DNA of 64,000 nt from an uncultured Bacteroidota bacterium (GTDB lineage: Bacteria > Bacteroidota > Ignavibacteria > UBA10030 > UBA6906): the NCBI GenBank assembly GCA_963700635.1, contig CAVOYH010000004.1:768001-832000 (forward strand), read 5' to 3'. Of the stretch, positions 2,028 through 32,617 are shown piece after piece (positions within the stretch are counted from its first letter, which is position 1; every line of letters begins with the position of its first letter). The translations under genes and the position numbers were made by a program. The notes under the pieces are model-generated. The model did not search any database. It was not told the DNA's origin and saw only the letters and a list, made by a program, of their open reading frames with translations.

Positions 2028-3048
2028 AGGCGCCGCGGAGGAGTCCGTCAGCCACAAGCCGTTCAGCGATCTGCACTGCGTTCGTCGCCGCTCCCTTGCG
2101 GAGGTTGTCGGACACAATCCACAGAGAGAGCCCATTGGGAACCGTCGGGTCCTTCCGCAGCCGCCCGACAAAGACTTCATCCTTCCCCTCAGCATCCCGT
2201 GGCATCGGATACCGGGAGTGCGCCGGCTCATCGACAAGCACGACCCCCGGTGCATGCCGGAGCAGATCTCTGGCCCGGCTGATGTCCACAGGTCTTGCGA
2301 ACTCGACGGTTACCGCCTCGCTGTGTCCGCCGGTAACCGGGACGCGGACGCAGGTTGCGGTGACACGGATCCCGGAGTCTCCCATAATCTTCACCGTCTC
2401 CCGCATCATCTTCAACTCTTCGCGCGTGTATCCGTCCGCTTCAAAGTCGTCGATGTGAGGGATACAGTTAAAGGCGATAGGATGCGGAAACTTCGGAATC
2501 CCGGCATCCCGCCCCTGCAGCTCGGCAATAAGCTGGTCGTATCCCCGCTGGCCGGCTCCGGTGACGGATTGATACGTTGCAACGACCACCCGGATTATCC
2601 CGAATGTATCGTGCAGGGGCTTGAGGGCGACGACCATCTGGATTGTGGAACAGTTCGGGTTTGCGATAATGCCACGGTGTTTCCGGAGGGCGTCCGGATT
2701 TACCTCCGGGACCACAAGCGGCACTTCCGGGTCCATCCGGAAGACGCTGCTGTTGTCCACCACAACAGTTCCGGTTGCCGCAGCGATGGGGGCATACTGA
2801 CGGCTGATGGCTCCGCCGGCGGAAAAGAGGGCAATCTGTGCTCCGGCTCCGCGAAGGCTCTCCTCCGTCAGAACCCTGACCGGCACGTCGGCTCCCCGGA
2901 ACCGGAGGCCCTTACCTGCAGAACGTGCGGAGGCAAAAAGCACAAGCTCCCGCACCGGGAACCGGCGGTCTTCCAGCACCTGTATCATGGTGCGTCCCAC
3001 CATCCCGGTGGCGCCCACCACCGCGACTGTATATTCTGGAGTGTTCAT
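2014..3048 (-). CDS. asd: aspartate-semialdehyde dehydrogenase
   Basis: VVGATGMVG Rossmann motif, DNSS, NPNCST catalytic Cys, DNLRKGAATNAVQIAE. Confidence 0.97.
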   Translation of the reverse strand: MNTPEYTVAVVGATGMVGRTMIQVLEDRRFPVRELVLFASARSAGKGLRFRGADVPVRVLTEESLRGAGAQIALFSAGGAISRQYAPIAAATGTVVVDNSSVFRMDPEVPLVVPEVNPDALRKHRGIIANPNCSTIQMVVALKPLHDTFGIIRVVVATYQSVTGAGQRGYDQLIAELQGRDAGIPKFPHPIAFNCIPHIDDFEADGYTREELKMMRETVKIMGDSGIRVTATCVRVPVTGGHSEAVTVEFARPVDISRARDLLRHAPGVVLVDEPAHSRYPMPRDAEGKDEVFVGRLRKDPTVPNGLSLWIVSDNLRKGAATNAVQIAERLVADGLLRGASATG

Positions 3049-4433
3049 CAGTGAAAGATTTCCTGGTACTGGTCCACGGTGTCAAAGAGTTCCGCGTGAA
3101 GCGCTTGAACGGTTGTTGCCACGGCATTTTCATCGATAACAAAGCTGAAATTAATTTCTGAAGCTCCCTGCGAGATCATGTTGATGTTCACGTGTGTGAT
3201 GGCGTTCAGGACGCGCGCGGCGATGCCCGCGCTGTTGCGCAGCTGGTCACCGACGACGCACACAATCGCCTTCCCGCGGTCCACCGTGACGGTGGCAAAC
3301 TGCTGAAGCGCCAGGACAATCTCGTCCAGGTGCGACGTGTCTTTTACTGTCACCGAGACGCTCACATCGGAGGTCGCCACCGTATGTACCACGGTGCCGT
3401 ACTTATGGAACACATCAAACACATTTTCCAGAAAGCCGTGAGCCAGGAACATTCTTGTGGACACGATGCTGATCAGGGTAATCCCTTCCTTGTACGCCAC
3501 CGACTTGACGATGCAGTGCTGGGTGGTGTGCGGTTCAGCCACGATGAGCGTGCCCTGAAAAGACGGCTTGCGTGAATTTAAGACCCGCACGGGAATCGCC
3601 TTCTGGATGGCCGGGAGAATCGTCTCCGGATGCAGTACCCTCGCACCGAAGTAGGCAAGTTCCGATGCCTCGCGGAAGGACATGATGCGGATACGGCGGG
3701 CGCCGGGCACAACCGACGGGTCTGCCGTGAGGATGCCGTCCACATCCGTCCATATCTGAATCTCATCCGCATCCAGGAGCGCCCCGATAAGCGCGGCCGA
3801 ATGATCCGAGCCACCGCGTCCGATGGTCGTGGTGATACCTCCGCGGGTGGCCCCGATAAAACCCTGGGTGACAACCACCTTGTGCTCGCGCAGCAGCGGG
3901 AGGGCAATCCGGTGCAGCCGGTGCCGGGTTTCAGCAAGATCCGGGACCGCCCGGGTGAACTCCGCGTCGGTGGTCATAAACGTGCGGGCATCCAGCAACG
4001 TGCTGGAGATGCCGGTGTGGCGGAGATACGATTCCAGAATCATGCTTGACAATCGCTCGCCATAGGATGCGAGGAGGTCAAGCGAACGGGGGGTGAGTTC
4101 GCCCAGGATGACTTATGCCGCTCACGAGCGCGAGCAATTCCGCGGCGGAGATATCGATCACGGATTGAACCGCTGCTCGCTCCGGATGGGGGAGGACGTC
4201 CTCGACGATCGTTGCGTGCTGCTGTGCGATCTGCATTACGAGGGCATTTGCCTCTTCGGCGCGCCCCTCGCCGGCCAGGGTCCCTATGTGCAAAAGTTGA
4301 TTGGTCACCCCCGCACAGGCGGAAATCACAACAAGCGTGGTATCGCCGGGGCTGTTCTTCACAATCTCTGCCACCCGGCGCATTGCGTCTCCGTTTTCCA
4401 CGGACGTGCCGCCGAATTTTGTCACAACGAGTT

Positions 4434-4437
<4 letters not shown>
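3048..4437 (-). CDS. lysC: aspartate kinase (apparent 1-bp frameshift near 4110)
   Basis: KFGGTSV N-terminus (ORF 4078-4437) continues in another frame into GRGGSD, WTDVDG, ELAYFGARVLHP and ACT domains (ORF 3048-4052). Confidence 0.9.
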
Positions 4438-7195
<2,758 letters not shown>

Positions 7196-7200
7196 ACATA

Positions 7201-7224
7201 CTGTATATTGTATACAATATACAG
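7201..7224. promoter_or_regulatory. perfect 24-bp palindrome, probable GntR operator
   Basis: CTGTATATTGTATACAATATACAG is its own reverse complement; the TTGTATACAA core matches FadR/GntR-type boxes; lies 10 bp before the gntR start. Confidence 0.8.
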
Positions 7225-7233
7225 AAAGGCCTT

Positions 7234-7971
7234 ATGGCGCGGAAAGCGGCAACAGAACGGAGCGTGGATCTGGGGTTTGACCGGGATGAAGTAAAGACCC
7301 TCCGGGACCGGATCGCGCAACGGATACGGGCATCGATCATTGACGGGCGGATCACGCCCGGGCAGCGGCTCGCGGAACCGGACCTGTCGCTGCAACTGGG
7401 TGTCAGCCGTACGCCCCTGCGCGAGGCGCTTCTGCAGCTTGATTCCGAAGGGTTTGTGCGCGTCACGCCCCGACGCGGGGCGGTGGTAAGCGCGCTTTCC
7501 CATGAAGATGCGCACGATACCTATCAGGTCAAAGGTGTGCTCGAGGCCTTCGCAGCGCGGCTGGCGTGCGAGCGGATGACTGCAGCCGAGCTGAAACAGC
7601 TGCGCGGGATCCACGACCATATGCGCCGCATCGCCGCGGCCCGCACAAAAGACGTCAAAGCCATCCTCCAGAGTAACGCAGAATTCCATCAGGCCCTCAG
7701 CGACGCGTCGGGGAACGAAAAACTTGCCGGCTACATCCGTTCATTGCGCAGCCAGGCACTCCGCTATAATTATATCTATCTGTCCGTCCTCTCACATCTT
7801 GCCACCTCGATGAAGGAACATGACCGTATCCTTGCCGCACTCCAGAAACGTGACGGTGCGGGCGTGGAACGCCTCGTGCGCGCCCACGGCGAAGCAGCAG
7901 GGAAGGCGCTCTGCGCCTACATCGACCGGCATGCGGGAGGGAACCATGTCAACGATCGTCACGGGAGTTGA
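7234..7971 (+). CDS. GntR family (FadR subfamily, FCD domain) transcriptional regulator
   Basis: PGQRLAE..LSLQLGVSRTPLREAL wHTH; NAEFHQAL...EHDRI FCD domain. Confidence 0.92.
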   Translation: MARKAATERSVDLGFDRDEVKTLRDRIAQRIRASIIDGRITPGQRLAEPDLSLQLGVSRTPLREALLQLDSEGFVRVTPRRGAVVSALSHEDAHDTYQVKGVLEAFAARLACERMTAAELKQLRGIHDHMRRIAAARTKDVKAILQSNAEFHQALSDASGNEKLAGYIRSLRSQALRYNYIYLSVLSHLATSMKEHDRILAALQKRDGAGVERLVRAHGEAAGKALCAYIDRHAGGNHVNDRHGS

Positions 7972-7973
7972 AA

Positions 7974-8897
7974 ATGAAAAAAATCCGGGTTGCGGTTGTC
8001 GGGTACGGTAATGTGGGCCGTTGCGCGGTGGAAGCTGTCATCTGTGAACCGGACATGGAGCTTGTCGGGATTGTCGAGGTGCCCGAGGTCGTCTCCAGAG
8101 ACTGTCCCTATTCCGAACGGGATCCCATCGTCCTGCAGCGTACGCGCATCGTCTCGGACGTCAAGGAGCTTTCCGGCATTGACGCGGCCGTGCTCTGCTG
8201 TCCGTCCCGCATCATCCGGGAATCGGCAAAGAAGATGCTCCGCCTCGGGATACGCACGGTGGACAGTTTTGATATGCACCATGAGATCCCCGCGCTCCGC
8301 AAGGAGCTGGACGCTGTTGCAAAGGAGTTTAACTCTGCGGCGATCCTCTCCGCCGGATGGGATCCGGGGATTGACTCGGTGATGCGGGGGTGGTTCCAGG
8401 CAATGGCACCGCGTGGCATCACCTACACGAACTACGGCCCGGGACTCTCCATGGGCCATTCGGTGGCTGTCCGGGAGATCCCCGGAGTGCGCAACGCCAT
8501 CTCCATCACCGTCCCTGTCGGGATGGGCATCCACCGCCGCATGGTGTATGTGCAATTGAAGGAAGGCGCCGAGTTCGAAGCGGTGGAAAAGCTCATCAAA
8601 AAAGATCCCTATTTCGAAAAGGACCGCACGTACGTCTATCAGGTGGAAGACGTCAGCTCGCTGATGGATACCGGTCACGGCGTGCTGCTCGAACGGAACG
8701 GCGTCTCGGGGATCACGCACAACCAGTCGATGCGGTTCCAGCTGAAGGTGAACAATCCGGCCCTGACGGCCCAGGTGATGGTGTCCGCCGCGCGTGCTGT
8801 CATGCAGCAGAAACCGGGATGTTACACCATGATCGAGCTTCCGGTGGTGGATTTTCTCCCCGGTGATGTGGACAGTTTTGTGACACGGTTTGTATGA
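7974..8897 (+). CDS. ddh: meso-diaminopimelate dehydrogenase family (D-amino acid dehydrogenase)
   Basis: VVGYGNVG, TVDSFDMH, SAGWDPG, YGPGLSMGHS, NNPALTAQVMV; resembles the short type-II DAPDH. Confidence 0.88.
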   Translation: MKKIRVAVVGYGNVGRCAVEAVICEPDMELVGIVEVPEVVSRDCPYSERDPIVLQRTRIVSDVKELSGIDAAVLCCPSRIIRESAKKMLRLGIRTVDSFDMHHEIPALRKELDAVAKEFNSAAILSAGWDPGIDSVMRGWFQAMAPRGITYTNYGPGLSMGHSVAVREIPGVRNAISITVPVGMGIHRRMVYVQLKEGAEFEAVEKLIKKDPYFEKDRTYVYQVEDVSSLMDTGHGVLLERNGVSGITHNQSMRFQLKVNNPALTAQVMVSAARAVMQQKPGCYTMIELPVVDFLPGDVDSFVTRFV

Positions 8898-9352
8898 GGA
8901 CGCCCATGAATGATCCCTATGCGCGAAAGCTGATCAACCGGAATTTTTTCTCGGCGAAGGCGGATGTCCATGGCCGCGTGCTTGTGGTGCTGGACGGGCT
9001 CCTGGAAAACCGGAGTCTGGATCTTATCACCCCGATCTCCCGCGCGTTTCCGGGCGGATCGATCATTGAACTGATCGGCACGGATGAAAAGGGAGCGGCA
9101 CCGGGGGAGAGCGTGCAGAAAATTTGTTACATCGCATTTGTGGAGCTGGACGAAGCCGGTGTGTTGCTGGCCGGCGATCCGGTTTCGATCAAAGGTAAAA
9201 ATGTCGGCACGATTGTCGGGTTCGACGATACGCACATGCCCAATCATCAGAATACGATTCTCCGTGTGGAGAAACGGATTTCGGGGGCGGACCTTCGTCT
9301 GAGTCCAGGCGATCCGGTCTGTGTTCACGGTTTTTCAACAACTCCATCCTAA
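8894..9352 (+). CDS. small beta-rich conserved protein (DUF6917-like)
   Basis: RSLDLI..ISRA, GVLLAGD, GFDDTHMPNHQN; family assignment from memory, unverified. Confidence 0.6.
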   Translation: MRTPMNDPYARKLINRNFFSAKADVHGRVLVVLDGLLENRSLDLITPISRAFPGGSIIELIGTDEKGAAPGESVQKICYIAFVELDEAGVLLAGDPVSIKGKNVGTIVGFDDTHMPNHQNTILRVEKRISGADLRLSPGDPVCVHGFSTTPS

Positions 9353-9366
9353 GAAAGGAAACATTG

Positions 9367-10833
9367 ATGGCAAAGCCAGAATTCAAATTTCAGATGTACA
9401 AACGACTGCAGGTGAACACACCCAAGATCTATGCAGACGCAAAAAAGGCCGCCGAAACGCTCAAGATGCCGGCCGAGCTCAAGGGAGTGATCGGTCTCAC
9501 CGGCGCAATCTCCGGATGCCCGTCCCCTCTGCGCGAAGATATTGAAAAGGTGATGGCGGTTGAATCCCGCAAGGTGGTGCCGCTGAACGTGTATGTGGAT
9601 CAGATCCGTGAAATTATCAAGGGCGCTTACGGCGACGACTATGACGCCGCCCCGGTGAATACGTGTGAAGGCGGGCTCTGGACAACATTTGACTGCCTCA
9701 TGACGCCGCCCATGCAGGGGCGTGGCGACAACTACCGCACGCGGTACATCACCCCGTACGAGCGCCACATCCACCATCACGGTGGATACGGACGCCCTTA
9801 CCCGCCCCGTTTTAAGGACATCCTTGCCGACCGGGGCAGCACGGCGGGGGAGCTCGGGTTCTACGGCAAGCGTCAGAACAACCTGGATACGGTGTTTGTG
9901 CCGCTTCCCGGCGCGACCTATCCTGTGCACGGCATCAACTATCACCCCGTACCGTTGTTGAAGAACGTGGACGCAAAGGCCTCGATCGCAGCATTACAGG
10001 CTGCGGCAAAGCAGCACGAACAGCTTCTGGCCGGCTTCGCCTCTCTCGGATATGACACCACCGGCTACGGTTACGGTAAAAAAGACGCTGATGGTACGCC
10101 CGTTCTTCTGAAAGGGATCGCCGGGATTGCCCGCTCGTACGATGTACCGTACGTCATTGACAATGCATGGGGAATGCCCATCATCGGCACCAGCATCAAA
10201 AAGGTGGGCGCCGACGTGATGATCTTCAGCATGGACAAGGCCACCGGTTCGCCGACCAGCGCGCTTATTATCGGGCGGGAAGAAGTTATGGTTCCCATCC
10301 GCCGGGCGCTTGGGTATCATGGCGCACGTTATGGCACCACTGCGTCGTATGGCAAAGCCGCCTACGTGACCATGGATCCGGGGAAGGAAGGCCTTTCGGG
10401 GCAGGTTGCAGCGCTGAAGGTGCTGCGGGACAAGCCCGAAGTCCTGAAAAAACCGATTGATGATCTGTATAAGATCGTGACGGAAGAGTTCCGGAAAATC
10501 GACAGCCGTATCCGTCCCTTCTTCAAGATCGAAAAGAGTTACAACTCGGGCGTGGTGGAAATTAATTACGAGGACAGCTGGAAGGGCGGGCGGCTGGGCA
10601 TTCCGATCTTCTCGATCGAAGACATGTACTCCGGCTCACACCTGCTGCAGGACGGGATGTCGCAGATGGGCATCATCCCGACGATCGCCTATGATGCGAA
10701 CATCTTCATCTCCCCCGGACTCGGCACCACGGATTCGCACGGCCAGGTGATCCCGGAACGGGCCCGGATGGTGGTACGCGGACTGGTGATGCTGATTGAA
10801 ATCGTCTGCGAACATGCCGGAATCTACGAGTAA
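9367..10833 (+). CDS. fold-type I PLP-dependent enzyme, SelA/DgaE-like
   Basis: VIDNAWG (PLP Asp) and FSMDKATGSPTSALIIGREEV (Schiff-base Lys; compare SelA FSGDKLLGGPQAGIIVG); AAGGA RBS. Confidence 0.75.
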   Translation: MAKPEFKFQMYKRLQVNTPKIYADAKKAAETLKMPAELKGVIGLTGAISGCPSPLREDIEKVMAVESRKVVPLNVYVDQIREIIKGAYGDDYDAAPVNTCEGGLWTTFDCLMTPPMQGRGDNYRTRYITPYERHIHHHGGYGRPYPPRFKDILADRGSTAGELGFYGKRQNNLDTVFVPLPGATYPVHGINYHPVPLLKNVDAKASIAALQAAAKQHEQLLAGFASLGYDTTGYGYGKKDADGTPVLLKGIAGIARSYDVPYVIDNAWGMPIIGTSIKKVGADVMIFSMDKATGSPTSALIIGREEVMVPIRRALGYHGARYGTTASYGKAAYVTMDPGKEGLSGQVAALKVLRDKPEVLKKPIDDLYKIVTEEFRKIDSRIRPFFKIEKSYNSGVVEINYEDSWKGGRLGIPIFSIEDMYSGSHLLQDGMSQMGIIPTIAYDANIFISPGLGTTDSHGQVIPERARMVVRGLVMLIEIVCEHAGIYE

Positions 10834-10838
10834 GCGCC

Positions 10839-11093
10839 ATGCGAGCACTGGATCATATCGTTGACGGCCTGGACATAGAAACCTACCTCGTCTGTTCCAG
10901 CGAGCGGGAAGGGAAGGACCTTGCCCTGCGTCTGGGGCAGGAGCTGCAGCTTGGTGAAGTGGATCTGATGTTCCAGGAATTTGACGGGTACGGGATGCGT
11001 GTGCGGATTCGTAAATACGTGCACAGGCCGGGCGACCCGTACCGCTGGCTCGGGGCTTTTGGCGGGGCGCAGGAGAAGGAGGAGGAAACATGA
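10839..11093 (+). CDS. 84-aa protein, possible stand-alone aminomutase dimerisation domain
   Basis: Tightly packed between operon genes (ATGA overlap with the next gene); pattern DG.......L....E....A..+..++.L.E recalls the KamE N-terminus. Confidence 0.6.
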   Translation: MRALDHIVDGLDIETYLVCSSEREGKDLALRLGQELQLGEVDLMFQEFDGYGMRVRIRKYVHRPGDPYRWLGAFGGAQEKEEET

Positions 11094-12898
11094 CTCCCCA
11101 CAACATCCTGTGTGTTCCGCTGGATCCGGTGCACGATGTCGGAATCAAGATCATCCGGAACGCTCTGGCCCGGAGGGGGCACACCACAGTGCTGCTCTCT
11201 CCGGACCTCAGCATGGAAGCTGTGGTCCGGCGGGCGGCGTCAGAGCATTTTGACGACATCCTTGTCAGCCGCACGCTCGGGTATGGTGTGGCGGAGCTGC
11301 TGGGGCGTTTTGTGGATCTGCTGGATGCGGCCGGTGTACGTTCGGGCAGCCGTGTGATTCTGGGGGGAAAGGCAATCACTCCGGAACTGGCTGCCGAGCT
11401 TGGCTTCGACCGTGGGTTCGACGAACATGCTGCCATTGAGGATATCGTGGCGTATGTGGAAGGGCGGCGGAGTGAAGCCGGAACCAGGGAGCGGGTGCGA
11501 GTAAAGCCGGATATCACTGCCGGGTACACCTATGAGGTCCATGATCCGGTCGTGCGTGAGTATCTGGATGAGATTGTTGCAAAACTGCTCCGATGGGCTG
11601 AAGGGAAGAGTACTCCCGGCGTCCGCCGGATGAAAGTACGCGAGGAACTTCTGAAGGCGCCCGATGCAGCCGCGGCGGAGCGATTGGAGAAAGAATACGC
11701 CTCGTACTGCGATCCCGTGATTCTCGAAGCGCGCCGGTCGGGCGTGCTTCCGAAGGGAGTGCGGAAGATAAACCCGCACGAACTTGAATCGGTGCGTGCC
11801 GGGCTCCGGACACGGAGTGCTTACAGGCCGGTTTCCATACGGCATCAGACGGAGAAGCCCCTGGTGTTCAAGTTTCTGGGGAGCGGTTGTCCGTTGATGG
11901 ATCTTGTGCACGGGAAAGTGTGTGAGCGGTGGGGGATAGACGGGTTTCTGGTGATCAATCCCTCATGGGAAGCGCGTTATGAAGGGTTGATGGATGGGTT
12001 GTTGACGCATGAGCAGGACGGCACGATAACTTCCTTTGAGAATGTCCGGTTGATGCGGGAGCTGTTGGATCCGGCAACCTTGCTCACTGTGCGAGCGCAC
12101 CGCGGGCTGAATACGCCCGAGACCGTACTGCTTGCGGGGAGTGCCGGTGCGGAGATGACGAAGATTGATCTGGTGTACGGCTCGCTCGGGGCCGGCACCG
12201 ACCCGGAGCGTCTGGCTGTGGACGGGATCGAGGCGATGCGTCTGGCGGCGCGGTTCGGTATGCCCTTTGATATACCGGGGAACGACGAACTCAGCGGCGT
12301 GCCTGCCTGGAAGACTCTTGCCGGGCTTCTTATTAATGTGCACCTGGGGCGTGCCCTTGGAGCGCGGCCCATACTAAAACCGCTGTTCTGTTACGGTCCG
12401 CACATCGTCATTAACGGACTGATGGATCAGAACTTTGTGGATTACAATACCGCGAAGATACGTGTGCTCCGGGCTCTTGTGGACTCTCCGATCTGGCCCG
12501 GGGAGCCCATTGCATTTATGACGCAGAGTGAAGACCGGGTACAATCGGCGAGTGCGACTGCCTTTCATGCTGCGCTTGCTGTGGCACTGGGTGTAGATGC
12601 CATCACCATCGCATCCACTGATGAGGCCTACTCGCGCGGACCGATATGTCTGGCCTCGCGGCTTGACAGTATTCAGGGTGTGCGCGAAGGAGCGCGGTTT
12701 CTGGGCGATGCATCGTTCACGCCGACTGCGGCATCGGAGCGTACGGCCGGGGAGATGACAGAGAAGATCCGGGAGACGCTTGACCGGGTGCGGCAGGCGG
12801 AGCATCTTCCGGCTGCCATCCATGCGGGTTTGCTGGGTGACAGTGAAGATGGGGCATATCCCGGGACATTCGGGAAAGGAACGGTTGTCGGGGCGTGA
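11090..12898 (+). CDS. cobalamin-dependent mutase-like protein (N-terminal B12-binding domain + TIM-barrel-like domain)
   Basis: DPVHDVG (His-on motif), LVSRTL, ILGGKAITPELAAELGFDRGF; C-terminal AVALGVDAITIASTDEA resembles the last barrel strand of glutamate/methylmalonyl-CoA mutases. Confidence 0.8.
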   Translation: MTPHNILCVPLDPVHDVGIKIIRNALARRGHTTVLLSPDLSMEAVVRRAASEHFDDILVSRTLGYGVAELLGRFVDLLDAAGVRSGSRVILGGKAITPELAAELGFDRGFDEHAAIEDIVAYVEGRRSEAGTRERVRVKPDITAGYTYEVHDPVVREYLDEIVAKLLRWAEGKSTPGVRRMKVREELLKAPDAAAAERLEKEYASYCDPVILEARRSGVLPKGVRKINPHELESVRAGLRTRSAYRPVSIRHQTEKPLVFKFLGSGCPLMDLVHGKVCERWGIDGFLVINPSWEARYEGLMDGLLTHEQDGTITSFENVRLMRELLDPATLLTVRAHRGLNTPETVLLAGSAGAEMTKIDLVYGSLGAGTDPERLAVDGIEAMRLAARFGMPFDIPGNDELSGVPAWKTLAGLLINVHLGRALGARPILKPLFCYGPHIVINGLMDQNFVDYNTAKIRVLRALVDSPIWPGEPIAFMTQSEDRVQSASATAFHAALAVALGVDAITIASTDEAYSRGPICLASRLDSIQGVREGARFLGDASFTPTAASERTAGEMTEKIRETLDRVRQAEHLPAAIHAGLLGDSEDGAYPGTFGKGTVVGA

Positions 12899-13962
12899 TC
12901 ATACTCGGGATTGCCGGAACCGCAAAGAACACGGGGAAGACCACCACGCTTGCCGCGTTGCTGGAAGAGGGGCGCCGGAGGGGGATACTGCCCGGTTTGA
13001 CAGGGATCGGGTATGACGGCGAAGAGCGGGACACAGTAACAAACCTTCCGAAGCCCCGGATTCAGGTCTATCCGGGCATGGTAGTAACCACCTCAGAACG
13101 ATGTCTGCATGTATCCACGGCACGCGGCGAGATCCTTTCGCGCACCGGTTTTTTTACGCCGCTGGGTGAGGTACTCATCCTTCGTATAACGAAGCCCGGG
13201 CTACTGGTAGTAGCCGGTCCGAATAAAACCGCGGACCTTGCGGCAGTATGTTCGGAGATGGAGGGGGCGGGAGCGGGGATGGTGTTGGTGGATGGATCGT
13301 TAAACCGGATAGCGCCGTTCAGCATAGCGCATGGTGTAGTGTTTGCCACCGGGGCTGCGCGATCGACGGATGTGGAGGTAGTGCGGAGGGAGGTCCTCGG
13401 AATAGAGTCTATTTTTTCGTATGGAACGGCATCAGTCAAGACTCCGGCGCACCGTGGGATCTGGATGGCAGGGGAAGAGGTCAGGGTACATCTGGCGGGG
13501 AGTGGAGTGCACGGGAGGGCGGACATCGAAAACGCGGTAGGCAAGTTGCCTGCTGGAGTCAGATCGATGGAGATATCGGGAGTTATAACAGAGGAAGGAT
13601 TGCGGGCGCTTGCGGGGACAGCGCAGCGTGGGGAGACAGGTGGGGCGTTGATACTGGACGATCCGATAAAGGTGTTGATTGGAGGGGATCCATCGGTAAT
13701 GGCGGGTCATCTTCGGGCATGTGCGGATGCCGGCCTGTCGCCATTGTACCGGGCCCGTCCGTTGTTATGCGGGATCACGGCCAATCCTTCGTACCCGTCG
13801 TTTGACGGGACAGTATATACTCCGGCCAGAGTTGAGGGTGAGGCATTTGTAGGGAGGATCAGGGAAGGTGTTGGGGTTCGTGTGTATGATCTGGTAGGGG
13901 AGGGTGGGGTTGGGGAGTTGTTTGATTCGTGTCTTTCTGCAGTGCAGTTTCCGCAACAATAA
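12895..13962 (+). CDS. KamB-like P-loop protein (putative B12-mutase reactivase subunit)
   Basis: GIAGTAKNTGKTTT, GLTGIGYDGEERD.VT..PKPRI, LVDGSLNR, FATGAA. Confidence 0.7.
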   Translation: MIILGIAGTAKNTGKTTTLAALLEEGRRRGILPGLTGIGYDGEERDTVTNLPKPRIQVYPGMVVTTSERCLHVSTARGEILSRTGFFTPLGEVLILRITKPGLLVVAGPNKTADLAAVCSEMEGAGAGMVLVDGSLNRIAPFSIAHGVVFATGAARSTDVEVVRREVLGIESIFSYGTASVKTPAHRGIWMAGEEVRVHLAGSGVHGRADIENAVGKLPAGVRSMEISGVITEEGLRALAGTAQRGETGGALILDDPIKVLIGGDPSVMAGHLRACADAGLSPLYRARPLLCGITANPSYPSFDGTVYTPARVEGEAFVGRIREGVGVRVYDLVGEGGVGELFDSCLSAVQFPQQ

Positions 13963-14853
13963 TCTTCTTGACAGTGTAACTCGCGTGCCGCAACCGGGCC
14001 TTCGGCGATGCCCATCCCATTCTGAGGTAGCAGCCAAGGGCTGGAAGGTGTCCACGCCGAACCCTACATTTTCCCCGTGTGGATGAGAACTGTGACAGAC
14101 AAACAGTGTCTGCCTTCGCTGCGGATCTCAGCTCACCCCGGCGGCTTGAGCCCCCCTGAATGCAAGTGTTGACAGTCCAAGCTAGACTCATTAAAGTTCC
14201 TTATAGCTTCAAAATTTACCCCTGATGGAGATCGGGATCTCGTAAGGATTTTGAAATCAAGAGTAAGCTCCGGTATATTATCAGTGTCTCATGTCATATG
14301 CGTGATGGTTCTTGGGTCAGAGGGGAACGAAAGTAGCACGCATAGTCTTTTCGGGACTTATAAGGAAGAAAGTTGCTCAAATTCTTGAGTACAAGGTGAG
14401 CATCCCCCCGTTCATTCGGTCTCCCCAAAAGGCTAATATATCCTGGGAGGCGGGTCCACATGGAAGAACATCGAGCGCGGCAGCGACTAGAACGGCAAAT
14501 CATCCATAATGCTGGGGGGCTATTAGCCTAAGAGTGTCGTAGTGAGTCGTCAGCGTGATGGGATCTGGACGTGGCTTCGTGCAACTCCATCGGTACGATC
14601 GGGAGTTTGCTGAGAATGTCGACCAAGCGTTTTCGGACAAAAGGAACCCTTCTGGTGAAGGAAAGATGAAGTACAATGCTATCGACATGTACCGGAACGA
14701 TCCATCAGCGCAGCTGGGAGGACGGGTCCGGCAGTATCCCGGAGTGGGCATTATGCGTGGCAGAACCAACGGGAAGGGAAAGGTTAGCTCGATGACTGGG
14801 TCGGCTGAGTGAGATTGATGTCCAGATAAAACCAAGGCGCTGGTTTAATCCTG

Positions 14854-15411: not shown

Positions 15412-15943
15412 ATGCGAAAAAGCGACCCGGATGTACTAGACACTTACGCAGACTTGATTGCAAAAGCCTATCGGCGCTACAAAGGCTTCTGGATCAATCT
15501 GGCGCGCACCTCCTTGGTAACCCAAGAGGATGGTGAAGATATTGTTCACGGGGTCGTTGGATCGATACTGGCGAGACGCGATATCGGCTTCGAATCGCTC
15601 GAACACGTCCGAAACTACGCTCGCGCGGTCTGTTTTGAACCGTGCCATCCAAATTAGGCAGAGGGCGGTACGAGTGTGTGAATTTGAAGAAGAAGTTTCG
15701 ATCGAAATTGCACCCTTGGAGCAGGTGGAGATTCTTGAGAGGCAGGAGGAGCGTGCTGCGTTACGGGCAGTGATTAATGGGTTGAGTCGACAGGACTATG
15801 AAATCATTAAATTGAGATTCTTTTCCGGACTTACATTTATCGAGATTAGCAGGATGCTTCAAAAGCCAGTATCGACCCTCAAAAGCAGGGAAGACGCTGC
15901 TTTGCGAAGGATCAGAAAGGATATGCAAAAGCGTGCCGGATAG
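15412..15943 (+). CDS. ECF-type RNA polymerase sigma factor (frameshift near 15620)
   Basis: Region 2 (EDGEDIVH...RNY|LARSVLNRAI) and region 4 (LSRQDYEIIKLRFFSGLTFIEISRMLQKPVSTLKSR) lie in different frames. Confidence 0.85.
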
Positions 15944-15980: not shown

Positions 15981-16778
15981 ATGAAAAGACATGGCAAATC
16001 TGTTGTCAAGTCATATTCTCTTGTAGATTTTGCTCGCGGACAACTAACCTGCGAAGAATCTCTGGAAATTCTGGGAATTCTCGAGGAAGATTCGACTAGA
16101 TCAGAGGAGCTCGAAATTGTGCTCAGAATGCTTGAGCCCAATTCGGCTGTTGGGAGCTCGGTCATAACCGATGACGAAAAGAAGAAGGCAGGACGCAAGG
16201 CCGTCCGAGATCAGCATACTGGCTTCGAGGTAATAGTCCGTAGTGCTGCGCTCGCAATCCTCGTTGTGGGAACGGCGCTCTTGGCGCAGGAATTTGGAAA
16301 GCCCGAAGGGTTCAATCTTCTTCACGTAAATCCAAATGACATTGACATCAGAACCCGGGGTGAACCCGAAAAGATTGCAGAGATCGCATACGCCTTAATA
16401 TGCGAAGGTGAGAACAAGCGTGCTATGGAACTAGTCGATTGGAGTCTGAGTGCACTTCCGGAAGGTGATGGACGCGCCCATTCACATCTCTTGAAGGGCG
16501 GTCTATTGTTGATGAAGTCGGAAATCTATTACCTGGCAATTTTTTCCCATTTCGATTCGACGCTCGTGCGGCAGGGCTTAAACGAATTAGATCTCGCTCG
16601 CAGGATGTCAGGTCAGAGGAGAGTTATCGAGGGTGCAATTTGGTTGAGCATCAAAGGGAATCTGATGATTGGCGACAGATTCAAGGCGTTGGAACAAATC
16701 GAGGCGTTAGAGTCGAGTGGGGGTGTCCGACATGCGGAAGCAAGTCGGCTAAGGCACTTACTCGATGATTGGGAATGA
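15981..16778 (+). CDS. putative membrane-anchored anti-sigma factor
   Basis: Directly after the ECF; N-terminal LVDFARGQLTCEE helix bundle (degenerate zf-HC2-like, no HxxxCxxC), one TM (~aa 84-102), helical TPR-like C-domain. Confidence 0.65.
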   Translation: MKRHGKSVVKSYSLVDFARGQLTCEESLEILGILEEDSTRSEELEIVLRMLEPNSAVGSSVITDDEKKKAGRKAVRDQHTGFEVIVRSAALAILVVGTALLAQEFGKPEGFNLLHVNPNDIDIRTRGEPEKIAEIAYALICEGENKRAMELVDWSLSALPEGDGRAHSHLLKGGLLLMKSEIYYLAIFSHFDSTLVRQGLNELDLARRMSGQRRVIEGAIWLSIKGNLMIGDRFKALEQIEALESSGGVRHAEASRLRHLLDDWE

Positions 16779-16811: not shown

Positions 16812-19800
16812 ATGAGGATCCCCTTAGCATGGGTCTGCCTAGTCCTCTCGGTTCAAATTGGTTCCGCAGCCAGCAAAATTGAGGCTGACCTACATGTTCA
16901 GCTTCGACGGATAATCGGAAAGGGTCATTACGATGAGGCTCTCCGACGTTGTATGAAACTCCTTATTCAACAACCCCAAACAGCTCAGCTCTATGAGATG
17001 AGTGCAGAGATTGGACAATACGGCGGTCAGTTGCCTGAGGTCAGCGCGTTTCTCAGAGAAAGAATTCGTGCCGGTCAAAACGTGCCATATGCATTGTTTG
17101 GGTGTGGGCAAGTCTATTTGAGGGAGGGAAAATGGTCCAATGCCATGCTAATGTTTGAAAGGGCGCAGTCGTTCGATTTGCAGATACCCTCTCTTTATGC
17201 AGGCATGGAACTAGCCTTCGAGAAACTCAACGGCGTGGATGCAGCGATTGAGTACTATCTCGCGTCTTCGCAGCGTGATCCGCGCAATGCAGGGATCTGG
17301 TATTCACTCGCCCTCGCTTATTGGAGCCGAGCCGATCCCGAAAATACTTTATCAGCAATCGATGAGTCCTTGAGACTTTCTGAAAATGAGCCAAGGTTTC
17401 GTCAACTTAAGGCTGGAGCCATGTACACTTGGTTGCTCGATGATCAATCCTTCAAAGCTGCTACCCACGAGATCCAGGCGGCGATAGCCCTTTGTGACTT
17501 CGATGGGGCTGAGTTTGTAAGGTGGTGTCTGGTAGACGGTTTGTCCTCGCAAGGAGAATGGGATCGGGCGTGTGCCATCGCGAAGGAAGCCAATAAGAGC
17601 GTTCGCGAATTCGGGCAAGTTAAGTGGACAGCGCATATCCACCTCGCGTTGGCGGTAAGAGAGCTAGCTCTGGGGGATCTCCATGGTTCATTAAATCATG
17701 CTGATTCTTCAAGTAAATATTTCAGTATGGTAAATGATGTCGATGGACTTCTTTCGAGTCGGGCCATTAAGATTGGAATACTTCGGGAATCTGGATCCGT
17801 TCAAACCGGACTGAAATACTGCTTCGAGGTATTCTCGGATCTTTCCGAAAGGAGCGACTCACGCCTTTGGGGCGGTGCATTCATCGACGCTGCATGGACG
17901 TTCGCTGAGATCGGAGCATTCCGGATCGCTTTGGCGATGGGTATAGAAGCCCAGCGAATTCTCCAGCGGTGTCTCTACGCAGATTATGATCAGGTTAGAT
18001 TGTACACTGCACTTGGACTGATTCACCAGAAAATCGGTAATCTGCCTCTCGCTATTCGATACCAGCGCCGGGCTCTCGGAATCGCCGAAGCTACCAATGC
18101 TCCACGAAATGCGCTATCTACCTGCGTAGGTCAATTGGCCGTCTCATTACTCTTGTTTGGAGACACGCTTGCTGCACGGACGCATTTTCGACGACAACTC
18201 AATCTTGCAAGAAAAGAGGGAGATCCAGGAGAAGAGAAGAAAGCACTGTATCATCTGGCAGAGCTAGATCTCGGGATGGCCTTGTACGGAGCCGCAAGAA
18301 GGAAAATCGAGACGGCCATGGACATTTCTCGAAAACAGAAAGACGATCGGACACTGAAGCAGTGTTACCTTCTCCTCGGCAGGATCGCGGAAAAGGAGGA
18401 AAAGAAGGGTGAAGCAATGTCGCACTACGGCCGCTCATTGAAGTATTTCAATGAGGAGAGAGGACGAAGACATCTCTTCATGATGACGGTGGAGATGAAG
18501 GAATGGTATCTCACTCAACATGAAGAAATAGTAAATGCACTCTGTCGAGTGGGTCTCATTGATGAAGCTTTTGCCTTGATTGAGAGTGTGCGCTGCGACG
18601 CTCAATACAGGTATCACTCTCGTTCATCTGAATCCAGGCGTGAACTTCGTCGTATTGAGGGCACTAGCGATGTAGAACTCATTATCTCCTCGTACAGGAA
18701 AAGTTGTCGCGACATTTCTACTAAAATGGAGGAAGACAAGATTGATTGGAGTCTACTTCTACCCGCGCTGAGGAAGAACCTTGCGATTGTTGACACACTT
18801 CACCAACTTGAAGAGGTGCCGGGTAGGATCCCAGAATTGCCTGCTACCAGAAACGACTCACGTGAAATCATCTCGCACATTCGGAATCGAATTCTGCAGA
18901 AGGGGGATGCACTTGTTGAGTTCTGGGTGGGGCATGTATCGACGGAGCGGTTTCTTTTGACTCGTGATACTCTTGTACATCATAGTTTGATGTTAGAGAA
19001 GGCGAAGTTGAATAAGTGGGTCATTCCCCTATTGGACCATTTTGGCGGAGAGGGGAGCATAAGCGATTCCTACCGAAGAGAGCGTCCCTCCGGGCAGTAC
19101 CAGGCGGAGCTTGTCGCTATTTCAGATTTGCTGCTGGGGGGTCTTCAGAACTTCCTTCTAGAAAAAGGCAACTTGATAGTGGTTGCAGGTCAGCCACTTG
19201 CGAGCTTGCCCTTCGAAGGAATGGTTTTGAGAACCGCGTCGGGGCTGAGGCAGTTGGTCGAAGAATTTGCGATATCGTATGCCCCGTGCATCTTTGCTTT
19301 GGAACCGCTTCCTGACTTGTCAACATTTGATCCAGCCGATCTTCTTGTGCTGGCTAACCCGCTGCCAGACAAGATCGTCGGAATAGATGCAATGATCCAA
19401 GCGGATTCAATTCGTTCGGGTGCTATGACCGATGGATATCGACTAGAACTGCCGGCAGCAGTAAGAGAGGCAGAGAGAATTCGCGCCGTGTTCGGATCTA
19501 CGAGTGTGATAAGGCTTGGACGTGAGGCCTCTGAAGGAGTCATGGCACGCGAATCAGCGCATTTTCGGATTATCCATATCGCTGCACATTCCACGTCACG
19601 CAAGAAGGTAAGCGATAGGCATGCAATCATCTTGTCTCCTGACGAAGAGAATGATGGGATCCTCGAATACAGGGAAATCGCAGCGCTGGATCTCAGAAGT
19701 GACTTGGTTGTGATCACAGGCTGTAGAGCAGGGGAGCCCAGCAGGGCGAACGATTGGGGAAGTCTCGCGGAGGCGTTCATTGAAGCTGGAGCCTCGAGTG

Positions 19801-20129
19801 TTATCGCGACACATTGGGATGTTGAAGATGTGGTTGCTGACAGGCTCTTTGGGCTATTCTACAGTTACCTAAGATCGGGAGAATCGCGTGCGCGCTCTCT
19901 CCAGTTGGCGAAACTATCTCTAATGAAGGATGGATTTACCGATGTGCGACTTTGGTGTGGTTTTCGACTATTCGGAAGGCATCACCCGATCGCTTGGTCA
20001 AAAAGGGATGACGGGGATGCTGTTGAATATCTTCACGCGGCTGCCGTCGCCTCTTTGCTGCTAATGATGGCCTCAGTGGTATTCTACTCGATCCGAAGAA
20101 AGAAAAGGAAATGTCCCTCGGCATCGTAG
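16812..20129 (+). CDS. TPR-repeat CHAT-domain (caspase-like, clan CD) protease with signal peptide and C-terminal TM anchor
   Basis: TPR helices, LASLPFEGM, IIHIAAHS (His), DGILEYREI, LVVITGCRAG (Cys), AGASSVIATHWDVED; C-terminal hydrophobic helix followed by RRKKRK. Confidence 0.9.
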   Translation: MRIPLAWVCLVLSVQIGSAASKIEADLHVQLRRIIGKGHYDEALRRCMKLLIQQPQTAQLYEMSAEIGQYGGQLPEVSAFLRERIRAGQNVPYALFGCGQVYLREGKWSNAMLMFERAQSFDLQIPSLYAGMELAFEKLNGVDAAIEYYLASSQRDPRNAGIWYSLALAYWSRADPENTLSAIDESLRLSENEPRFRQLKAGAMYTWLLDDQSFKAATHEIQAAIALCDFDGAEFVRWCLVDGLSSQGEWDRACAIAKEANKSVREFGQVKWTAHIHLALAVRELALGDLHGSLNHADSSSKYFSMVNDVDGLLSSRAIKIGILRESGSVQTGLKYCFEVFSDLSERSDSRLWGGAFIDAAWTFAEIGAFRIALAMGIEAQRILQRCLYADYDQVRLYTALGLIHQKIGNLPLAIRYQRRALGIAEATNAPRNALSTCVGQLAVSLLLFGDTLAARTHFRRQLNLARKEGDPGEEKKALYHLAELDLGMALYGAARRKIETAMDISRKQKDDRTLKQCYLLLGRIAEKEEKKGEAMSHYGRSLKYFNEERGRRHLFMMTVEMKEWYLTQHEEIVNALCRVGLIDEAFALIESVRCDAQYRYHSRSSESRRELRRIEGTSDVELIISSYRKSCRDISTKMEEDKIDWSLLLPALRKNLAIVDTLHQLEEVPGRIPELPATRNDSREIISHIRNRILQKGDALVEFWVGHVSTERFLLTRDTLVHHSLMLEKAKLNKWVIPLLDHFGGEGSISDSYRRERPSGQYQAELVAISDLLLGGLQNFLLEKGNLIVVAGQPLASLPFEGMVLRTASGLRQLVEEFAISYAPCIFALEPLPDLSTFDPADLLVLANPLPDKIVGIDAMIQADSIRSGAMTDGYRLELPAAVREAERIRAVFGSTSVIRLGREASEGVMARESAHFRIIHIAAHSTSRKKVSDRHAIILSPDEENDGILEYREIAALDLRSDLVVITGCRAGEPSRANDWGSLAEAFIEAGASSVIATHWDVEDVVADRLFGLFYSYLRSGESRARSLQLAKLSLMKDGFTDVRLWCGFRLFGRHHPIAWSKRDDGDAVEYLHAAAVASLLLMMASVVFYSIRRKKRKCPSAS

Positions 20130-31024: not shown

Positions 31025-32617
31025 ATGAAAAAAACGAAATTTACGACGGTGAGCGGTGAGCCGATCGCGCCGTTGTACACGCCCGGCGACGTGGCACAGA
31101 GTAATTTCCAGACGTCCATCGGACACCCCGGTGAGTATCCGTATACCCGCGGGATTCATGAGTCGATGTACCGGGGCCGGCTCTGGACGATGCGGCAGTT
31201 CGCCGGGTTCGGGGCTCCGGAAGACACCAATGAGCGTTATCACTATCTGCTGGGCCATGGCCAGACCGGCCTCTCGGTGGCATTTGACCTGCCCACGCTG
31301 ATGGGGAAAGACAGCGATGATCCGCTTTCTGAAGGAGAGGTGGGGATCTGCGGCGTGTCGGTGAGTTCGCTTGCGGATATGGAGATACTTTTCCAAGGGA
31401 TCACGCTGAACGACATCTCGACCTCCATGACGATTAACGCGCCCGCCGCGATGGCGCTTGCGATGTACGTTATCGTTGCCGAGAAGCAGGGCGCCCGCCC
31501 TTCAGATCTGCGCGGCACGATCCAGACCGATATTCTTAAAGAGTACATCGCCCAGAAAGAATGGATTTATCCACCGCGTCCCTCGATGCGGATTGTGACG
31601 GATATGATCGAGTACTGCTCGGAGGAAATGCCACTCTGGAATCCGGTGTCGGTGAGCGGGTATCATATCCGCGAAGCCGGTTCCACCGCCGTCCAGGAGC
31701 TGGCCTTCACACTGGCCGACGGGTTTGCGTACGTTGAGGCCTGCCTGGAACGCGGGATGGATGTGGATGCGTTTGCCCCGCGGCTGTCGTATTTTTTTAA
31801 TTCCCATCTGGACTTCTTCGAGGAAATCGCGAAGTTCCGCGCCGCACGTCGGATCTATGCCAAGCGGATGAAGGAACGGTACGGGGCCAAGAATGCGCGG
31901 TCCATGACGCTGCGCTTTCACACGCAGACCGCCGGATGCACGCTCACCGCGCAACAGCCCGAGAACAATATCGTGCGGACGGCCTTTCAGGCGCTCGCCG
32001 GAGTGCTGGGCGGAACACAGTCGCTCCATACAAATTCCATGGACGAGACGCTTGCCTTGCCGAGCGAAAAGGCAGTAAAGATCGCCCTGCGCACGCAGCA
32101 GATTATCGCGCACGAAACCGGCGTGATCAACACGGTTGACCCGCTCGGGGGAAGTTACTTTGTGGAAGCCCTGACCGACCGGATGGAACAGGGCGCGGAA
32201 GAGTACTTCAAGCGTATTGACGCGCTGGGAGGCGTGATCCCCGCAATCGAACAGGGGTTTTTCCAGCGCGAAATTGCCGATGCGGCATACCGGTACCAGC
32301 GGGAACTCGACGCCGGTGAAAAAACCATCGTCGGCGTGAACCAGTTTGTGGAAGAGGATGAAAATGTCACCATCCCGATTCTGACGGTTTCACCCGAGGT
32401 GGAGATCAAACAGCGCAAGCGGATTGCCGAACTCCGAAGCTCGCGCAATGGACAAGACGTGGAACAGGCACTGGCCTCGCTAAAACAGGCCGCAACGGAC
32501 GGCGCCAACCTGATGCCCCCGCTCCTTGTGTGCGCCCGCACGTACACCACGGTCGGCGAAATGTGCGCGACGCTGGCCGAAGTGTTCGGCGTCTATGAAG
32601 AGGTGTCGGTGTTCTGA
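31025..32617 (+). CDS. methylmalonyl-CoA mutase family, large (substrate-binding) subunit
   Basis: [44 protein letters not shown]; no B12-binding domain. Confidence 0.93.

Follow-up and report, generated by a model that had tools for sequence, protein, structure and literature searches.

The subject of this report is a protein of 602 amino acids encoded on the forward strand of contig CAVOYH010000004.1 (assembly GCA_963700635.1) from an uncultured Bacteroidota bacterium of the class Ignavibacteria. The stretch that was analyzed, called here the window, comprises 64,000 nucleotides (positions 768,001 to 832,000 of the contig), and all coordinates refer to it. The results indicated that the protein is probably the catalytic chain of an adenosylcobalamin (AdoCbl) radical isomerase, that it constitutes a separate family within the lysine/ornithine aminomutase superfamily, and that the operon to which it belongs is probably catabolic for an amino acid. 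A preliminary description of the same DNA had proposed a hybrid, an aminomutase-type B12 domain devoid of the lysine loop that anchors pyridoxal 5′-phosphate (PLP), fused to a barrel like that of methylmalonyl-CoA mutase (MCM). The first half of that proposal agreed with the data, and the second half did not.

Domain Organization and Origin of the Barrel

The open reading frame (ORF) overlaps its neighbours at both ends: its start with the stop codon of the 84-codon ORF before it, and its stop with the start of the 355-codon ORF behind it. The protein was divided as follows.

11090..12898, +, complete 602-amino acid B12 enzyme, stop codon included (ORF list, Pfam, NCBIfam, profile and fold evidence)
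11102..11458, +, residues 5–123, KamE/OraE-type cobalamin-binding Rossmann domain (Pfam B12-binding, KamE profile, hhalign with OraE, secondary structure of the AlphaFold2 model)
11132–11134, +, codon of His15, within the Rossmann domain
11459..11854, +, residues 124–255, low-confidence linker followed by helices that align with the N-terminal accessory region of KamD
11855..12649, +, residues 256–520, KamD-like triose-phosphate isomerase (TIM) barrel with a remodelled cofactor site (N290–A295, R338, K358, Y363, G364–T370) (Foldseek, residue mapping, conservation)
12650..12895, +, residues 521–602, C-terminal helices corresponding to the C-terminal part of KamD (hhalign, AlphaFold2 model)

The AlphaFold2 (AF2) model, built on a 30-sequence alignment, had a predicted local distance difference test score (pLDDT) of 82.9 and a predicted template modelling score of 0.84. 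It consists of a Rossmann domain (residues 5–123), a poorly defined linker, helices between residues 153 and 240, and, from about residue 258 onwards, a barrel of alternating beta strands and alpha helices, and thus the C-terminal domain is the TIM barrel that the preliminary description had expected. When the model was compared with the PDB by Foldseek, the best match was KamD (1xrs_A, E = 3.6e-18, followed by 8t0v_A and 9q1a_C), with a template modelling (TM) score of 0.64 normalised to the target. OraE (E = 2.5e-10), GlmE (2e-8), IcmF (5e-8, TM 0.33) and HcmA (5.7e-5) were found at lower ranks, the acyl-CoA mutases having TM scores of 0.33–0.38. The family profile was also aligned by hhalign with fetched KamD and OraE sequences, and residues 136–602 corresponded to KamD residues 1–501 with a probability of 91% (E = 1.2e-7). 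The helical regions at both ends of the barrel were included: residues 136–250 were paired with KamD 1–143, with large gaps, and residues 521–602, which are helical in the model from 521 to 578, with KamD residues from about 420 to 501. The stacking Tyr and the strings GL..PE, FMT and Y[DE]GL[IL]EG are common to this protein and KamD/OraE. The aminomutase family models matched poorly. The Pfam model Lys-AminoMut_A, which describes the alpha barrel of D-lysine 5,6-aminomutase, gave a sub-threshold match at residues 224–392 (14.9 bits, cut-off 25), the NCBIfam OraE equivalog NF040743 gave 15.3 bits against a cut-off of 800, and no match to the NCBIfam KamD alpha model NF052384 was listed at E ≤ 0.1.

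An MCM-like barrel was considered and rejected. The window includes a 530-amino acid protein at 31025–32617 (+), named MCM in the preliminary description, which served here only as the BLASTP comparison. The segment that had been aligned by eye with this protein was recovered by BLASTP as the best local alignment (residues 490–512 with 319–341), but it has 9 identities in 23 positions and an E value of 1.4 in a single comparison, and the fold ranking favours KamD, OraE and GlmE. The C-terminal 470 residues are therefore not mutase-like in the MCM sense but a KamD-like TIM barrel. Since a KamE-type Rossmann domain and a KamD-type barrel are fused in permuted order, both halves are aminomutase-like and the protein is not an aminomutase/MCM hybrid.

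The Cobalamin-Binding Domain

Residues 13–114 matched the Pfam B12-binding family with 36.7 bits (cut-off 32.1). The NCBIfam matches were weak, the best being the KamE (beta) model NF052385 (41.2 bits, cut-off 280). When a profile of 30 family members was compared with solved structures, KamE (E = 1e-14) and OraE (2.4e-9) were the nearest relatives; the matches to corrinoid proteins were weaker, and KamD was at E = 0.019. The domain was aligned by hhalign with OraE residues 595–732 at a probability of 95%. The resemblance to KamE and OraE noticed at first sight was thus confirmed. The position of the domain at the N-terminus, which had been taken as new, has a precedent: the NCBIfam IcmF model aligns N-terminus to N-terminus, its own positions 15–96 of 1076 matching residues 15–97 of the 602-amino acid protein.

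The His motif of this domain reads D12-P13-V14-H15-D16-V17-G18, with Pro at the canonical Asp position and an Asp one residue before Pro13. The canonical string D.H..G was found in none of 121 family members, while DP[VM]HD[VIA]G was found in 119 of them, which confirms the DxxHxxG pattern pointed out in the preliminary description. H15, D16 and G18 are invariant in all 144 distinct sequences of the two clades, and all 142 ungapped rows have P13. His15 may be the ligand of cobalt.

The lysine loop is missing, as had been claimed. In the hhalign alignment with OraE from a genome of the same class, a gap of four residues in the query falls exactly at I-K-H-G of OraE. In HMMER comparisons, the KamE stretch “...AIMNMKGYAGHYGLE” was left unaligned and the alignment of the B12 domain begins only after it. 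The positions that face the lysine loop of KamE are R23, N24, A25 and L26, and no conserved Lys was found there. K20 stands five residues after the His; since OraE has an equivalent residue (V-G-L-K), it is not the PLP lysine.

The Cofactor Site of the Barrel

The PLP contacts of lysine 5,6-aminomutase (5,6-LAM) are described in a review, PMC3958899. The imine lysine is Lys144 of the Rossmann domain. Tyr263 is stacked against the ring, with Ser238 at the pyridine nitrogen and Asn299 at the phenolic oxygen, and the phosphate is held by Arg184, Arg268, Ser189 and the amides of Gly187–Ser189; according to the same account, these contacts are highly conserved in ornithine aminomutase. That source also gives E341 of KamD as proposed to contact the ribose of the adenosyl group and His182 of OraE as a contact of the substrate carboxylate. 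The corresponding residues were located through alignments to 1xrs_A and 3kow_A, whose numbering reproduces the residues of PMC3958899, and by hhalign. The local alignments were anchored on both sides by the shared strings Y[DE]GL[IL]EG, GL..PE and D..YG. The correspondence, KamD first, is as follows.

R184-T-T-G-Q-S189, replaced by N290-P-S-W-E-A295
R184, replaced by N290; G187–S189, replaced by W293-E294-A295
S238, replaced by R338
Y263, kept as Y363 (Y187 in OraE)
R268, replaced by A368
D298-N299, replaced by D399-E400
E341, replaced by C434

Among the barrel residues of KamD reported to contact PLP that were compared (R184, G187–S189, S238, Y263, R268 and N299), only Y263 is retained. The substitutions are not a loss of conservation, and the replacement motifs are as invariant as those they replace. 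All 121 family members have the strings [ND]PSW[EG]A and YG[SA]L[GA][AG]G[TS], and none of 120 KamD homologues has them; these homologues are a narrow comparison set in which identity is at least 74% with one outlier at 57%. The fetched OraE carries R-T-M-G-Q-S, as KamD homologues do. W293, R338, K358 and Y363 were each found in all 144 sequences and the loop at 364–370 is nearly invariant, while E294 is G294 in the distant clade. K358 lies at the end of the strand preceding Y363 and aligns with His182 of OraE. In TIM-barrel PLP enzymes such as alanine racemase, an Arg faces the ring nitrogen of PLP.

Three readings fit these sequences. PLP may be held differently inside the barrel, it may be bound without an aldimine, or it may not be used. 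The preliminary description had proposed a new subclass of AdoCbl enzyme, either PLP-independent or anchoring PLP differently. A distinct, conserved subclass without the Rossmann PLP lysine was indeed found, and both options for PLP are still live; since the phosphate motif of the barrel and the Ser at the ring nitrogen are also replaced, that pair of options is now better founded.

A Predicted Small Subunit and a KamB-like Protein

The gene directly upstream encodes an 84-amino acid protein, s84. Neither Pfam nor NCBIfam gave a match for it, and no usable match was found in the ESM Atlas. It has no detectable relation to OraS: hhalign gave a probability of 0.3% with that subunit, and the best match to KamE (17.8%) lies outside the KamE N-terminus. 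A model of the complex between s84 and the mutase had an ipSAE (interaction score from predicted aligned errors) of 0.85, while the best of three controls had 0.00. The mark used for this score is reached by 58 of 80 solved complexes and by 2 of 110 mismatched pairs, counts that are rough here given that custom alignments were used. At least 86% of the contacts were common to the runs, and the pLDDT of the partner was at least 85. On the s84 side, the predicted interface includes the invariant residues D9, D12, E14, D42, E47, R56, R58, Y60, P64 and Y68. On the mutase side, the interface includes the helix 230–241 and the loops after the barrel strands (265–273, 306–308, 480–483 and 511–522). 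There is no invariant lysine in s84.

The gene directly downstream encodes a KamB-like protein, which matched NF052386 over its full length with 189.7 bits, slightly under the cut-off of 210, and fetched KamB by hhalign with a probability of 98.8%. NCBIfam names KamB as one subunit of the reactivase of lysine 5,6-aminomutase. Together with the fold and the KamE-like domain, this adjacent gene suggests that the 602-amino acid protein binds AdoCbl and forms a substrate radical.

Gene Neighbourhood

The mutase gene belongs to a unit of seven genes that overlap or are separated by gaps of at most 11 bases. The other six are listed below.

7186..7971, +, GntR/FCD regulator, first gene of the unit (Pfam GntR 67 bits, FCD 95 bits)
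7968..8897, +, homologue of meso-diaminopimelate dehydrogenase (DAPDH) of the Symbiobacterium thermophilum type (TIGR01921 303.7 bits, cut-off 180.6)
8894..9352, +, DUF6917 protein, 152 amino acids (Pfam PF21891, 138 bits), adjoining the PLP enzyme in both clades
9364..10833, +, fold-type-I PLP enzyme, 488–489 amino acids (weak family matches, AF2 and Foldseek)
10839..11093, +, s84, 84 amino acids, of no known family, predicted small subunit of the mutase (linkage, complex model)
12895..13962, +, KamB-like protein with a P-loop-like GxxxxGKT stretch near its N-terminus (NF052386, hhalign)

The gene order is identical in 12 genome loci, as far as the contigs reach. In both clades, the s84 gene is directly upstream of the mutase in every locus with flanking sequence, and the KamB-like gene is directly downstream wherever the flank is long enough. 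The GntR/FCD gene is upstream in 11 of the 12 genome loci, the remaining one (L001) ending before it. In the distant clade, represented by 24 metagenome loci, the s84–mutase–KamB-like arrangement is kept wherever flank is present, and this trio is preceded by genes of the RidA/YjgF-like and GntR/FCD types. DUF6917, the PLP enzyme or both are nearby in 5 of these 24 loci, many of which are short, and no DAPDH homologue was seen in the 24.

The DAPDH homologue is the sole copy in the genome and matched the solved meso-diaminopimelate dehydrogenase 3wb9 with 403 bits; by hhalign it was aligned with the N-terminal NAD domain of Ord (91%). Within the family of the window, DAPDH and the PLP enzyme were both found in each of the five mutase-positive genomes searched, beside the mutase in four of them (in G069 DAPDH is on another contig), and neither was found in any of the five mutase-negative genomes searched. 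The genomes searched are kin and not independent samples, and therefore this co-occurrence is not a statistical test. Nonetheless, as the only copy in the genome and one that tracks the mutase, DAPDH belongs to the accessory unit and not to housekeeping lysine synthesis.

The PLP enzyme is poorly related to named families. Its matches to SelA, DgaE and Cys/Met enzymes are all far below cut-off. Its AF2 model (pLDDT 76) gave SelA, Cap15, γ-aminobutyrate aminotransferase and SepCysS as the best Foldseek matches, all at about 1e-10 and with no specific neighbour, and the ESM Atlas returned only unnamed “aminotransferase class V” clusters. It has 1145 homologues at E ≤ 1e-20, “hypothetical” in nearly all sources, and is very conserved, being 66–69% identical to Bacillota proteins. 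Thermanaerosceptrum fracticalcis and Desulfovirgula thermocuniculi are among the carriers of a homologue. The stretch S289-M290-D291-K292 is invariant, and its K292 is likely to be the Schiff-base lysine. Fetched OrtB matched models of the cysteine- and threonine-synthase type, and the hhalign probability between the PLP enzyme and OrtB was 0.2%; that between DUF6917 and OrtA was 0.5%.

Pfam and NCBIfam scans found no methyltransferase gene in the operon, nor was a methylaspartase found there, and no G-protein chaperone domain or gene is present. Rfam gave no cobalamin riboswitch in the window, and scans for promoters and terminators gave nothing usable. Kce and OrtA were not found in searches of the genome itself, nor did Pfam KamD match there; the Pfam KamD and OrtA controls matched nowhere, and these two genome negatives are therefore weak.

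The divergent genes upstream are a separate methionine-type unit that includes a Cys/Met PLP enzyme behind an S-adenosylmethionine (SAM) riboswitch, an alpha/beta hydrolase, an aspartokinase and an aspartate-semialdehyde dehydrogenase. The SAM riboswitch (RF00162, 75.6 bits; 6985–7098, −) lies inside the 5′ part of the ORF 5571–7151 (−) of the Cys/Met-metabolism PLP enzyme (PF01053, 465 bits), and therefore the true start of that gene must be downstream of the riboswitch. At 4434–5922 (−), the alpha/beta-hydrolase domain is divided between two overlapping ORFs in different frames, positions 1–103 of PF00561 being in ORF 4813–5922 and positions 108–241 in ORF 4434–5093, which suggests a frameshift or a sequencing error. 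On the other side of the operon, the G+C content drops from about 0.59 to about 0.50 between 14001 and 22000, a stretch that contains a sigma-70 region-4 protein (15530–15943), a 265-amino acid ORF without Pfam match (15981–16778) and an ORF of 1105 amino acids (16812–20129). In one distant-clade locus (L021), the operon is flanked by an Amidohydro_3-type amidohydrolase of 574 amino acids (3048–4772, +) and by a second class-V aminotransferase-like gene and an SDR gene (12109–14252); these genes may be relevant to the substrate, although this is a single observation.

Size and Distribution of the Family

A word-indexed search returned 1061 proteins, of which the best 120 are all of about 600 amino acids and at least 62% identical; these 120 have no source names other than “cobalamin B12-binding domain protein” and “MCM cobalamin-binding subunit”. 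An exhaustive search of representatives clustered at 50% identity added a single further full-length cluster (P0121, 45% identity); all other matches were fragments and unrelated B12 domains, and no split form of the enzyme was seen among these representatives. The family is thus a compact and isolated one, with more than 1000 sequences divided between two clades. The distant clade may belong to Bacillota. In a sample of 301 genomes of the phylum, the mutase was found in 7, all of one class and with a patchy distribution within families, canonical KamE in 2 and OraE in 1. The copies of two relatives appear to be interrupted: one is split at residue 137, with one TGA (G229:C8:1522328-1524125) and another has one in-frame TAG (G053:C84:506-2296). 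A search limited to one full-text literature library found no published description of the fused enzyme of reversed order and none of DUF6917.

Proposed Function and Alternatives

The functional types in the operon follow one another in the order of the canonical ornithine cluster, and the operon was therefore read as a parallel pathway. In the pathway that we propose, a KamE-type Rossmann domain, probably His-on, precedes the KamD-type barrel, and s84, as modelled, would clamp onto the loops on the active-site face of that barrel. Homolysis of AdoCbl would generate the 5′-deoxyadenosyl radical, which would abstract a hydrogen from an amino acid held in the barrel and start a 1,2 shift, most likely of an amino group. 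The KamB-like protein would exchange damaged cofactor and so keep the mutase active. The rearranged product would then pass to the fold-type-I PLP enzyme and DUF6917, and the last nitrogen would be freed as ammonia to give a 2-oxo acid, by the DAPDH homologue here and with RidA in the other clade. The link to RidA suggests that the PLP enzyme makes an enamine or imine, a product that would fit elimination of a beta- or gamma-amino group introduced by the shift. Control of the operon would fall to the GntR/FCD regulator. If the mutase uses PLP, the cofactor would not be tethered to the Rossmann domain and its pocket would consist of Tyr363, Arg338 in place of the ring-nitrogen Ser, the Gly-rich loop 364–370 and possibly Lys358.

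Several observations weigh against this reading. The His motif lacks the canonical Asp, Pro13 standing in its place, and the PLP-lysine loop is absent from the B12 domain. In the barrel, R268, S238 and E341 of KamD have become A368, R338 and C434, and R[ST].GQS, present in 120 of 120 KamD homologues, is found in none of 121 family members; the mapping of these residues depends on alignments of low identity (about 17–21%). We know of no amino shift without PLP except next to a hydroxyl group, and the reaction may therefore not be an amino shift. KamC, the MutS-like ATPase partner of KamB, was not found in the genome, which is 97% complete, where only ORFs of MutS size matched; this partner is present in a fetched canonical cluster. 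The similarity of the DAPDH homologue to a true meso-diaminopimelate dehydrogenase is high (the 403 bits given above), and meso-diaminopimelate fits no simple scheme. Finally, s84, DUF6917 and the PLP enzyme have no detectable homology to OraS, OrtA and OrtB, and therefore the parallel with the ornithine pathway is positional only.

Part of this evidence can be explained if the aminomutase scaffold has changed its chemistry and the protein is a PLP-independent AdoCbl enzyme, all B6 chemistry being supplied by the neighbouring PLP enzyme. We consider this unlikely, but it is the most serious of the competing explanations. Four of the five tested PLP contacts are lost (the Lys loop, R-T-x-G-Q-S, R268 and S238), W293 and E294 (G294 in the distant clade) stand where the phosphate-binding backbone of KamD lies, GlmE is the third-best fold match, and a separate PLP enzyme is co-conserved. 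Such an enzyme could be an eliminase like ethanolamine ammonia-lyase, converting for example 5-hydroxylysine to 2-amino-5-oxohexanoate and ammonia, or a carbon-skeleton mutase of the glutamate-mutase type, but these substrates are guesses that the gene content does not support. Furthermore, the stacking Tyr and its D/N-x-x-Y-G context are invariant, the invariant loop G-S-L-G-A-G-T after the Tyr resembles a phosphate binder, an Arg opposite the ring nitrogen is familiar from alanine racemase, and KamD and OraE are clearly closer than GlmE. Another explanation, a divergent orthologue of D-ornithine 4,5-aminomutase or lysine 5,6-aminomutase that catalyzes the known reaction of a known pathway, its usual PLP site no longer recognizable in the sequence, would account for the gene order and for a fold closest to KamD and OraE. 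It is nonetheless improbable: the equivalog models are widely missed (OraE 15.3 against 800, KamE 41.2 against 280, KamD unlisted at E ≤ 0.1), every PLP-phosphate and lysine motif common to KamD/KamE and OraE is swapped for a different but equally invariant one, the partner enzymes lack homology to OrtA, OrtB and OraS, and Kce and OrtA were not found in the genome, the negative for OrtA being weak. Moreover, the fully canonical ornithine cluster of a genome of the same class illustrates how an orthologue appears in this lineage.

A methylcobalamin carrier for a methyltransferase system, with no radical enzyme involved, is suggested by the V-H-D-V-G core, which resembles that of corrinoid proteins, and by weak matches of the B12 domain to MtgC (28.5 bits), MtbC (15.1 bits), a pyl-type model (20.4 bits) and the structures 1y80, 3ezx and 7xcn. 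These scores are far below the family cut-offs (215–370 bits), and the domain is fused to a KamD-like TIM barrel, has KamE as its best solved relative and begins its Rossmann fold at residue 5 with no N-terminal helical cap. A KamB-like reactivase gene adjoins, and the operon is without methyltransferase genes. We regard a methyl carrier as very improbable. The reading as the catalytic chain of a radical isomerase within the aminomutase superfamily is thus preferred. A bolder version of it, which we put forward tentatively, is that the family is a third aminomutase-type B12 family without lysine tether, in which PLP would be bound inside the barrel as in alanine racemase (aldimine with Lys358, Arg338, Gly-rich loop) or the radical chemistry would be PLP-free, and which together with s84, DUF6917 and the PLP enzyme would constitute an undescribed route of amino-acid degradation in Ignavibacteria-like Bacteroidota and in a second clade.

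Significance and Comparison with Known Systems

To our knowledge, no more than two AdoCbl/PLP aminomutases have been described at the molecular level, and in both of them the resting enzyme is locked by a Rossmann lysine bound to PLP. In the family described here the scaffold is retained, but the lock is gone and so are most of the PLP contacts; the family is therefore a natural test of their purpose. New B12 chemistry or a new substrate may come to light through it. The operon places s84, DUF6917 and the 488-amino acid PLP enzyme, none of which has an assigned function, in a functional context and suggests a catabolic role for the DAPDH homologue, which is absent from relatives without the operon. 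If the substrate were a common diamino acid, soil and sediment Bacteroidota would have an added B12-dependent route for recycling nitrogen and carbon.

The enzyme resembles KamD/KamE (1xrs, 8t0v, 9q1a) in its TIM barrel with accessory helices, in the KamE-type Rossmann domain with its His, in the adjacent KamB-like gene and in the stacking Tyr, GL..PE and FMT. It differs from that system, with which it is about 17–19% identical, in that it is one fused chain with the B12 domain first, without the KamE N-terminal domain and the Lys144-beta loop; R184/G187–S189, R268 and S238 are replaced, KamC was not found in the genome and there is an extra 84-amino acid subunit. With OraS/OraE (3kow–3kp1) it shares the fusion of barrel and B12 domain, the small second subunit, Y[DE]GL[IL]EG, the stacking Tyr and A-W-K motifs. 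The order of the domains is reversed with respect to OraE, where the barrel is N-terminal and the B12 domain C-terminal, the lysine insertion (Lys629, which forms the aldimine in OraE) is missing and the phosphate motif is replaced. The canonical ornithine cluster found in a genome of the same class (L047, G004:C6:22000-34000) has the arrangement ord–ortA–ortB–oraS–oraE–GlmL-related Or-4–orr, its genes being all above NCBIfam cut-offs except small ORFs, which were left out of the scan. Position by position, this cluster and the operon described here consist of a dehydrogenase, a small protein, a PLP enzyme, a small protein, a mutase and a reactivation factor. In the operon, s84 is unrelated to OraS, the partners are unrelated to OrtA/OrtB, and the reactivation factor is KamB-like and not GlmL-like.

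IcmF and MCM, likewise AdoCbl mutases, combine a TIM barrel with a Rossmann B12 domain, which in IcmF is N-terminal as well. The barrel of the 602-amino acid protein is far closer to that of KamD, the match to the MCM of the window is insignificant, and no G-protein chaperone accompanies it. GlmS/GlmE combine a Rossmann B12 domain with a TIM barrel, the fold match to GlmE being E = 2e-8, and glutamate mutase acts on an amino acid without PLP. Their subunits are separate, the similarity is below that to KamD and OraE, their accessory protein is of the GlmL type, and the operon described here has no methylaspartase. The 602-amino acid protein is most aptly placed in the AdoCbl aminomutase-type superfamily as a new variant, one that has the fold of KamDE and OraSE yet departs from them in family scores, domain order, lysine and PLP pocket.

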